A DNA stretch of 64,000 nucleotides from Tubulanus polymorphus (lineage: Eukaryota > Animalia > Nemertea): contig NC_134029.1 in assembly GCF_964204645.1 (NCBI RefSeq), positions 22,934,950 to 22,998,949 of the forward strand, in the 5' to 3' direction. The translations under genes and the position numbers were made by a program. The notes under the pieces are model-generated. The model had not been told where the DNA came from, made no database searches, and was given only the letters and a program-made list of their open reading frames with translations. Shown here piece by piece: positions 52,149 through 55,100 of the stretch. Position 1 is the first letter of the stretch; the number at the start of each line of letters is the position of its first letter.

Positions 52149-55100
52149 CTACGGCTCAATGTTCATCACTTTACACACCCATTTTCCGATGTCTATATTT
52201 TCGAAATCAGACTTCTTGATAAATGCATGATTCTGAAATGAATGTTGTATATGATTTATTACTAGTCCACGCGAACAAAAATTCGAAGTAAATGTTTTTG
52301 GTGAATTGCAAAAAGTCGATACAAACCACTAATCCTTTCAGGTCAGAGCGTTCTTTTGGATTCTTTTTCAGACTAAAAAAGAAAAATAATTGATATATTA
52401 TAAATAGAGTAAAGCGAGTGACTCGAAGCTCGAGTGAGAAATCATCAACTCACCAGCGAACAACAAAATCTTGGAATTCGTCGGAAAAGGCTCCTTTTGG
52501 TAACTTTGGCGGAGGCTGAAAATGGAATTGACCTTGTATCAATGTTAAGAATCTAAATATAAATTCATCATTAATAATTAGAGGATATCTAAATTAGGAT
52601 CAGTTGCTCAAAGTTTTGTAGTTCGTGAAACTCTAAGAAATATTGAGAAACTTTTTGCTTAATTTGGTACGATTTTTTCAAGAAGACATTTAAATTCATC
52701 ATCTTTAGGTTCATTATCTTTGAGCAATTGGGGTTTCGTAAAAATTGAATATTGGCTCTTGTAAATTTAAGGTGTATTCCTTCCAAATTATGAGAGGCTT
52801 GATAAACTTGAATACTAGTAAGCACAAATTTGTGGTGACCTTCTACAATCAAACTCAAGTCCAAGTCATCATTGGATAAGGTGACTCTAATTTTCACACC
52901 TTAATTTATATTTCCAATTCAATGGATCGATATGTAAGTCGACATTTGGATTTAAGTCATCACTTTAAATGATCACGGTCTCAACTATGACTTCTAGAAT
53001 TTGACTGTAATAAATCGTAGGATTTAAGCAGGGTCTATAGAGCGTGAAATAGAGCATGTAATGATGAGGGTCGACCAGAACTAGCCAAAATATGGTACCG
53101 TAGGTAAATTCTATTGATTCGATAAATTTTCATCCGAGACATACTTTTAACTCGATATAATTTGATTGATTTGAAGGATGGCTGTTACATATCCTTATAC
53201 GGTGAATAATGTCCATATATAATGGGAGCTGTAAGAAGATACTGCTAAAAAACCGTAAAGAGTTTCTGTGACAAAAACTGAAATATTCGTAATTTAGTCA
53301 TACAATTATTAGAATTTATGAATCGATATCTCAATAATCTGTCAGCAGTCGTCCCTGGTTTTAGACAGATACTATGAATAACATATGAATTTATGAATTA
53401 TGTGCATAGTTTTACAACAAATCATTTTGAAATCATAGAGGACCCAGTGTTCACATATACCAACAACAACCACAACAACAACAGCATCATCCTCCCTCTG
53501 CAGGGACTCGAACCTGATGGCATCGCTACACTCAGCCACGGCACGAACCCCTGCATCAGTAGACCGGGTGCGCAGGTACATACGCAGCTTTCCGAACGAA
53601 AACTGGCGGCACCAATCAGATTGCTCGTTGTATAATCGTTGAGGCAAATTTCAAGGAAGAACTATAAATGGGAAAACCCGGGCTAAAATAAAACGGGATT
53701 TCTGATTGGCTAAAAATCACATCATCTGAACTGCGCATGTATCTGCGCACACGGTCGATTATGGCAGGGTTTCGTGCCGTGGCAATCTCGATGCCATCAG
53801 GTTCGAATCCCTGCCGGGGGAGGATGCAACAGCATAGAATTCAAAAAGTCCTGCGAATATGTCTTAACTGACATGACGCGATCACACGGAGATGATTTGG
53901 CCCAGATCAGACCCCGAGTCAAATTTGGCCCATGCCTAAATTAGAGAGCGTGTTCGCATGTAAACCTCTTACTCGTTCGTAGAATGCTATCAAAATGATA
54001 CTGTGGCAAGCGAGGTAGATGGAATAATTTGAGCTAAAATTTGGCACAAGCCTGGACTGACATTTTTGGTTGTGATTTTCCCCGTGTGAAACAGGTACAG
54101 CACCGTTAAGCGCCAGAACGAATGGTTGGCTTGGGCCTAATATAATCTGGCACGGGTCAAAAACAATCGTGTGATCGAGGCTTTAAGTCGACAAAAAAAA
54201 TACAGTGACATCAACGAGTCTTGGATCATCAGACCTAAAACTGCTGCAAATCGAACACATTTTACATTATCCACGGTGCACAACACTAAATTACAAATTA
54301 AAGAAAATCTGGGACACCGCCACACAAGATAGGAGGAAGTAGCCAAACTTCGAATATATTTTTCAGTCCTCTGCCACGACCAACCGACAAAACAATTCCT
54401 TCAAGAAAGCTAAAAAATCTTCCAGGCCGCGATCATTCCGGTTCTATCAAGCCGAATAATTACATAAGTCAGCGGTTTATAGTTAGCGCGTTATAAAGTC
54501 AAGCCGTATGAAATGATTAGGCGAATAAACGAAAATGTAAAACCAAACTGCGAATACCTACAAAAATCATCGACAGCTCGAAAACAAAACATACCTCATT
54601 CACAATATAATCTAAAAGCTCAAATATGGCCATAGTAATAGGTCGGGGTCCATCCGCAGCTGTGGCACTATAATTACTACTCCTCCTACCTGGAAGCATA
54701 AAGAAGGTGTGATTGGACACAAAGAAAGCTGACACCATAAAACATGTTCAAGTTTCAAGCCACCGTTTACCTCATTCACAATATACTCCAGTAATTCGAA
54801 GATAGCCATCGGCTGACTGTCCCCGCTAATCCACTCAAACTTACTCGGGCAACCTGCAACAAATCATATACACATGAACGATGCTTTTAGTAGATGAGAG
54901 GGACAGTGCGCGTTATTATAGCCACGTTCGTATTAATCATCATCGTTCTTCAAAATGATTCCCGAAATTCTGCTACCAAATTCTGATTCGGCTCGATTTT
55001 GTAAACTTAACTGTACACAGTAACAGCAGCGGTGAAGTTCGACCAGTTTTACAACTTTAATCCGGAAGACTCGATTAACCGATCTAGTTGAGTTAACCCG

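Follow-up and report, generated by a model that had tools for sequence, protein, structure and literature searches.

The nearest described case to the exon pair reported here is p38-alpha (MAPK14, CSBP1/CSBP2), in which two mutually exclusive exons of 80 nt are entered in phase 1 and left in phase 0. From a reading of the encoded peptides, this pair presumably covers helix alpha-G. The JNK genes MAPK8, MAPK9, and MAPK10 likewise contain a duplicated catalytic-domain exon in a MAPK-pathway kinase, and their exclusivity is enforced by a U12/U2 mechanism. Mutually exclusive exon clusters that arose by tandem duplication are characterized, in Hatje et al. 2017 (PMC5740500), by similar neighbouring exons, identical phases, and a frameshift upon double inclusion; the paper reports exon lengths that are no multiple of three for 60% of the human clusters. 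In vertebrate MEK1 and MEK2, according to PMC3398258 and PMC10605237, divergence is also concentrated in the proline-rich insert (residues 262-307) with its regulatory sites. The MEK1/2 gene described here carries two tandem copies of its exon 8, designated 8a and 8b.

Results

The MEK1/2 gene and its two copies of exon 8

The window, meaning the whole 64,000-nt stretch of DNA that was analysed, contains on its minus strand the MEK1/2 (MAP2K1/2) orthologue of the nemertean Tubulanus polymorphus. Its exon 7 gives a 100% match to a MEK1-like RefSeq protein of this species, and the RefSeq model X1 protein matches human MEK1 with an E value of 8e-179 and Drosophila Dsor1 with 1e-158. The kinase domain is closest to MEK1/2, gives a Pkinase match, and has a SMANS activation loop and an insert that precedes helix alpha-G. 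The features of the gene are as follows, in window coordinates.

60668..60857, minus strand: exon 7, constitutive; encodes kinase subdomain IX and the first part of the insert, ends with TGRPLK in phase 1, and is joined to 8b in contigs of runs X2 and X5
57295..57327, minus strand: candidate 33-nt microexon, phase 1-1, from a splice-site scan; putative, with the frame intact with either exon 8
54771..54853, minus strand: exon 8a, class A, 83 nt; acidic loop with Cys, then helix alpha-G with Glu315; weak donor GTAAAC
54845..54853, minus strand: possible in-frame 9-nt microexon formed by the start of 8a; consensus donor GTAAGT directly after it, frame kept with 8b
54788-54786, minus strand: Glu315 codon of 8a
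54690..54770, minus strand: intron between 8a and 8b, 81 nt; branch-like A at 33, 61, or 72 nt from the donor; covered by one unspliced contig of run X2
54595..54689, minus strand: exon 8b, class B, ancestral-like, 95 nt; Arg-x-Ser loop, then helix alpha-G with Asp315; donor GTATGT
54612..54614, minus strand: TAG in the double-inclusion frame, made by synonymous codon choice at Leu314-Asp315; the first stop if 8a and 8b are both included
52454..52515, minus strand: exon 9, 62 nt
52327..52372, minus strand: exon 10, 46 nt; joints in runs X2 and X5
52149..52232, minus strand: exon 11 (last), coding part

The two intact tandem exons proposed by a first-pass annotation of this DNA are present, 81 nt apart, with AG acceptors, GT donors, and phase 1 in and phase 0 out. 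Over their final 39 nt, 8a and 8b are identical at 30 of 39 positions, and when the 8b peptide is compared with the remainder of the exon 7-9 span the score is 60, where shuffles (n = 100) reach at most 41. A single DNA contig of run X1 covers both exons and differs by three substitutions and three gaps, all intronic; the pair is therefore no assembly artefact. Double inclusion breaks the frame, as had been predicted, with a stop reached inside 8b. Either copy alone gives a full reading frame, and skipping both produces a frameshift with a stop in exon 10. RefSeq holds two models of the gene, X1, with exons 7-8b-9, and X2, a truncated form that skips both copies of exon 8; 8a is in neither.

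Four junctions had been named for the two predicted isoforms, and those of 8b were found in the contigs of six Tubulanus runs: 60668-54689 in runs X2 and X5, and 54595-52515 in runs X2, X5, and X6. The junctions of 8a, 60668-54853 and 54771-52515, were not seen in these contigs. Rare forms are lost from contigs, and the result is therefore no proof of absence; nor is the missing cover of 8a in runs X3-X6. Runs X2, X5, and X6 are taken as RNA because their contigs carry spliced joins, no run being on record as RNA. Only one contig, unspliced and from run X2, covers 8a, at a depth of 5.6; the spliced pieces with 8b have depths of 44-55. No joint between 8a and 8b is listed in the six runs, and 8b is the sole exon 8 form seen spliced in Tubulanus, in the contigs and in RefSeq X1. 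We nevertheless think it probable that 8a is productively spliced in this species. The contigs seen join exon 7 straight to 8b, without the candidate 33-nt microexon. This candidate has a strong donor, and its final TGCCCGA equals the start of 8a; optional segments between exons 7 and 8 occur in relatives, of 6 residues in oysters, 13 in Lineus, and 20 in Lingula. Run X6 carries the same species label. Over 54595-54665, two amino acids are changed within nine codons of its 8b loop, and the run has hardly any words in common with the window; it is likely from another species.

Elsewhere in the window, an intronless ZIP zinc transporter ORF (47921-46788, minus strand; PF02535, E 3e-67) with a His-rich loop lies downstream of the MEK gene on the same strand, and a large last exon at 33166-32258 (minus strand; PF06602, PF12578) belongs to a myotubularin-related gene. 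Short interspersed elements in MEK introns, at 53500-53830 and 55280-55450, are highly repeated and abundantly covered. Minisatellites lie at 56712-56858, 57898-58188, 58626-58811, and 63503-63612.

Two exon classes in lophotrochozoans

Exons homologous to 8a and 8b fall into two classes. Class A typically has CPGDFQVITGDGPLP ahead of the helix and Glu315, and class B typically has RNSF..P..GSDGPRP and Asp315. With Tubulanus left out of the profiles, 8a of the window scores 54.4 bits on the class A profile and 38.7 on class B, and 8b scores 54.1 bits on class B and 42.3 on class A. Both helix versions occur in at least 22 of the 50 named species among the proteins compared, the clusters of which are partly covered, so that a single class in a species does not mean absence of the other. 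Isoform pairs are identical on both sides of the exon 8 region in 17 of 20 comparisons, most of these isoforms being annotation models whose read support is not visible. The 17 pairs come from molluscs (scallops, oysters, clams, snails, abalone, and octopus) and the brachiopod Lingula, whose B form has an additional upstream segment besides the exon swap. In the other three, the Argopecten A form is a read-through, Liolophura has another N terminus and a read-through, and a Lineus model was paired with a near relative. Transcript-derived proteins with A alone are also found (P0049, and P0181 from Logan), as are B-only ones.

Because the two classes are common to these phyla, the duplication is older than their split, and we are highly confident that the exon pair is present in the lophotrochozoan clade. 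The 17 isoform pairs bear out the earlier suggestion of an old duplication under selection whose copies serve as alternatives in relatives; the opposite picture, with the other exon absent or degraded in relatives, was looked for and is not what they show. Of the two classes, B is the one that is like the single Priapulus protein and the vertebrate block, and A is therefore likely the derived copy. No class A protein from outside the lophotrochozoans is among the 34 matches, of 36 candidates, in the class A search, which sets a weak limit. In the alignment, the A peptide is tightly conserved over four phyla. The 8a of the window is among the most divergent class A members, with GDSQP in place of GDGPLP; its 83 nt fall 3 nt short of the usual 86 nt, and GPLP is missing. 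Divergence of 8a is also seen in the brachiopod and in the other nemertean. Caenogastropods have a longer exon A, in which its own start is repeated internally (P0008, P0132, P0133, P0134, and P0173), and P0173 has two CPG units within one contiguous ORF.

A scan with the exon A pattern identified 34 metagenome loci (L001-L034). L009, L015, and L017 contain A followed by B, with introns of 1215, 1410, and 853 nt, respectively, between them; the clam-like L027 stops short of B. L029, which fits the pattern without being class A, was excluded from the donor counts. The order A then B is shared by the window, these three loci, and the models of Mactra, Biomphalaria, Lamellibrachia, and Dimorphilus, the annelid gene models thus holding both copies in unchanged order. 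The remaining 29 loci form one group with KYPIPPP, as in Helobdella, Capitella, and Lamellibrachia, and judged by these residues the group is probably annelid. Fifteen of the 29 run from A to exon 9 with no B between (eight of the 15 include exon 7), and the remaining 14 are too short for this to be judged; A can thus likely serve as the only exon 8. The annelid-like B proteins P0060, P0061, and P0064 may be paralogs; a quick tree without exon 8 gave no decision on a B-only paralog in the A-only group.

Splice sites and the out-of-frame stop

The donor of exon A lacks G at position +5 in all five loci of the two-exon type, namely the window, L009, L015, L017, and L027, the B exon of the last being out of view. 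Position +5 is G in the eight other donors checked in the window gene and in all 22 distinct exons of the A-only group. Read-through of the A donor is seen in several A models, including Argopecten, Liolophura, and an oyster Logan contig, and from V-K/T/I/M read-through peptides we infer a non-G +5 also in Argopecten, oyster, Liolophura, Biomphalaria, Dimorphilus, and P0173. In each of the four loci with B in view, its donor is GTATGT. A weak A donor and a GTATGT B donor fit B as the default and A as the regulated exon. The 22 distinct A-only exons are probably one lineage and hence one event, in which the ancestral exon was apparently lost and the donor of the derived exon made stronger.

All four loci with both exons (window, L009, L015, and L017) share one TAG, 17 nt before the end of B, as the first stop of the double-inclusion frame, and the Mactra model P0018 ends at this TAG. 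The codon choice that makes it occurs also in two of 27 class A exons. The TAG of the window precedes the last junction by 125 nt; if 8b held no stop, the distance would be 41 nt, which falls inside the 50-nt limit for decay given in PMC1431701. The stop of the skip-both product is 16 nt before the last junction, so this product would escape decay, which fits RefSeq X2; decay fails to explain exclusivity on the skip side. Identical synonymous codons number 58 of 69 in 8b, 39 of 69 in 8a, and 27 of 92 in exon 7, where B exons seen as DNA number four, two of them from close relatives, and the exon 7 control comprises the window, L017, and L027. The higher identity in both exons likely reflects RNA-level constraint in both, in B beyond the need of the stop. 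The conservation extends past the stop, and a splicing element rather than the stop may be the true cause of it.

Several ways of enforcing exclusivity were rejected as general mechanisms. Recursive splicing by way of a donor re-formed where 8b begins (GTAGG) fails because its GT is not kept in L009, L015, and L017. The U12/U2 incompatibility of the JNK exons is inapplicable here, since none of the donors GTGAGC, GTAAAC, and GTATGT has the U12 consensus. Counts of regulator motifs show no shared pattern.

The exchanged loop and helix alpha-G

The exchanged exon corresponds to human MEK1 residues 299-320 and contains helix alpha-G. The vertebrate intron lies in the codon matching MEK1 Ser299, and MEK2-type ORFs leave homology right after GRP[V/I/M]SG, an intron position that we take MEK1 to share. 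By this position, Thr292 and Ser298, which the first-pass annotation had placed within the exchanged segment, are both encoded by the upstream constitutive exon. In Tubulanus, that exon has T-G at the place of Thr292 and Lys at the place of Ser298, so that neither site is present, and plain alignment lays the second Ser of the RRSS motif in 8b on human Ser298. A parallel that had been drawn with the vertebrate MEK1/MEK2 split stands as an analogy only: in that alignment both vertebrate MEKs have Ser298, and Thr292 is specific to MEK1 (PMC10605237).

The earlier claim that a basophilic motif is confined to 8b turned out to describe the class as a whole. Arg-x-Ser/Thr or Arg-x-x-Ser/Thr occurs in 25 of 32 class B loops (it is missing in seven) and Ser/Thr-Pro in 13 of 32, with a mean charge of +0.75. 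The class A rows, two of which were cut too long by the script, have one Arg motif in 36, located in the upstream extra segment of Lineus, one Ser/Thr-Pro in 36, and a mean charge of -2.25. Exon 8b of the window has RRSS and no Ser/Thr-Pro. A Cys is found in the first three positions of 27 of the 36 class A rows as cut. These counts and those for residue 315 rest on exons classed by loop; the comparison that gave both helix versions in 22 of 50 species classed them by residue 315, which misfiles Mytilus coruscus.

The sole fixed helix difference between the classes is at residue 315, a position whose contact with ERK, like helix alpha-G itself, was absent from the first-pass annotation. It is Glu in 36 of 36 class A exons and Asp in 31 of 32 class B exons, the Mytilus B exon carrying Glu, and in 34 of 34 members of the vertebrate block. 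Asp to Glu is a mild change. AlphaFold models of the two oyster isoforms show the helix (residues 333-342 and 337-346) after a low-confidence coil loop in both. In the human MEK1-ERK structure, as described in bioRxiv 10.64898/2026.03.13.710243, Ala309-Glu320 bind the ERK F-site, with Glu312, Asp315, and Glu320 contacting ERK Asn274 and Lys276, and F311A MEK1 is not phosphorylated by BRAF. The pairing of KSR with MEK is centred on helix alpha-G in PMC11257983; PMC13693665 was set aside because it concerns the helix of RAF. The idea that Asp/Glu in 8a mimics a phosphorylated Ser of 8b holds in many molluscs and fails in nemerteans, Lingula, Lamellibrachia, and octopus, and is weak.

Discussion

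These observations are best explained if lophotrochozoans splice in exactly one of the two tandem exons, which we regard as likely, and thereby produce two full-length kinases that are predicted to differ in regulation and not in catalysis. Exon 8b would be used by default, and 8a, with its weak donor, would be an alternative under regulation, as the annotation of relatives shows and as would apply to 8a here. Splice-site competition and nonsense-mediated decay of 8a+8b messages would keep the exons exclusive; the conserved stop inside 8b would aid decay, and a short intron would not be needed. The basic 8b loop, with Arg-x-Ser and often Ser/Thr-Pro, would be open to PAK/PKA-type and feedback phosphorylation. 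The 8a loop is acidic, more conserved, and without those motifs, and its Glu315 lies on the helix that docks RAF/KSR and ERK; the 8a kinase would thus escape phosphorylation inputs and bind its partners slightly differently. That a phosphorylation-gated B kinase alternates with a crosstalk-blind, slightly re-tuned A kinase, as the motifs suggest, has in our estimate a little less than an even chance.

Exon 8a could instead act mainly as a dosage switch, in which messages with retention or with 8a+8b are destroyed, MEK is lowered, and the A protein is minor. The weak 8a donor, the solely unspliced cover of 8a in run X2, the read-through models in three molluscs, and the conserved stop all fit such a switch, but an A peptide conserved in four phyla, 17 full-length isoform pairs, loci with A as the only exon, and transcript-derived A proteins do not, and we consider it very unlikely. 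It is only slightly less improbable that the pair is functional in relatives and that 8a is fading in Tubulanus. Its lack of a spliced form in the six runs and of a RefSeq model, its 3-nt deficit, and its loss of GPLP would be accounted for; its open frame, intact sites, retained Cys and Glu315, and lack of differences in run X1 would not. Moreover, 8a shares seven to eight of 12 synonymous codons with L015/L017, against nine of 29 in exon 7, and the brachiopod and the other nemertean diverge at the same place.

The isoforms may differ chiefly by a new binding motif or a lipid/redox site in the A loop, with its conserved Cys and hydrophobic F-x-V-I, and the greater uniformity of the A loop relative to B and the frequent early Cys speak for this. 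Lingula, Mya, and the Helobdella model lack the Cys, however, no partner is known, and the model has no ordered structure; we find the proposal doubtful, with some weight of its own. Exclusivity enforced sterically by a short intron, or by RNA pairing, is unlikely. The 81-nt intron, for which a branch A at 33 nt from the donor is possible, and one of ~72 nt inferred from the Dimorphilus model, would suit steric interference, but the introns of 853-1410 nt in three relatives dismiss it as a general mechanism, their AG-free zones are just 33-53 nt, and the likelier branch A lies 61 nt from the donor, over the 50-nt limit used in PMC5740500. As for pairing, no duplex was found at a shared position in four loci with exon-near probes within 1.2 kb, of which a few exceeded 10 shuffles, and the local RNA fold in the window is weaker than that of shuffles.

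The alternation of gated and crosstalk-blind kinases can be extended to a wider proposal, which we advance tentatively and rate below even. At the root of the molluscs, annelids, brachiopods, and nemerteans, the single MEK gene would have gained a second, cell-type-regulated RAF/ERK docking exon; all of these animals, including Aplysia, octopus, and oysters, would be able to switch between a gated MEK and a crosstalk-blind Glu315 MEK, guarded by the stop, and one annelid line would have fixed the derived form. MEK is the bottleneck of the RAS-RAF-MEK-ERK cascade, and an exon switch on its docking helix and loop, retained by four phyla, would be a natural experiment on the role of the loop. The A and B isoforms are already in public annotation, unlabelled, as X1/X2; if the switch reading is true, work on ERK in spiralian memory, development, and regeneration has pooled two enzymes. 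The conserved out-of-frame stop is a clear candidate for selection on synonymous sites for decay.

The MEK exon pair is real and ancient, and apparently undescribed. No published description was found in the literature searched, the scope of which excludes subscription papers such as bivalve MKK surveys, and MAP2K1 and MAP2K2 have no matches in the human mutually exclusive exon supplements of PMC5740500 as obtained, long files that are possibly partial. The p38-alpha pair belongs to another gene and another tier of the cascade, and the duplications are therefore independent. Unlike p38-alpha, the MEK pair leaves the helix nearly unchanged and replaces the preceding loop, and its two exons differ in length. 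The JNK exons differ in being 72 nt long, of phase 1-1, and from another part of the domain. The vertebrate MEK1/MEK2 divergence involves two genes, not exons, with Thr292 and Ser298 upstream of the homologous exon. Compared with the clusters of PMC5740500, the MEK pair is distinguished by being common to four phyla, by its conserved synonymous stop, and by one group in which the ancestral copy has apparently been lost.
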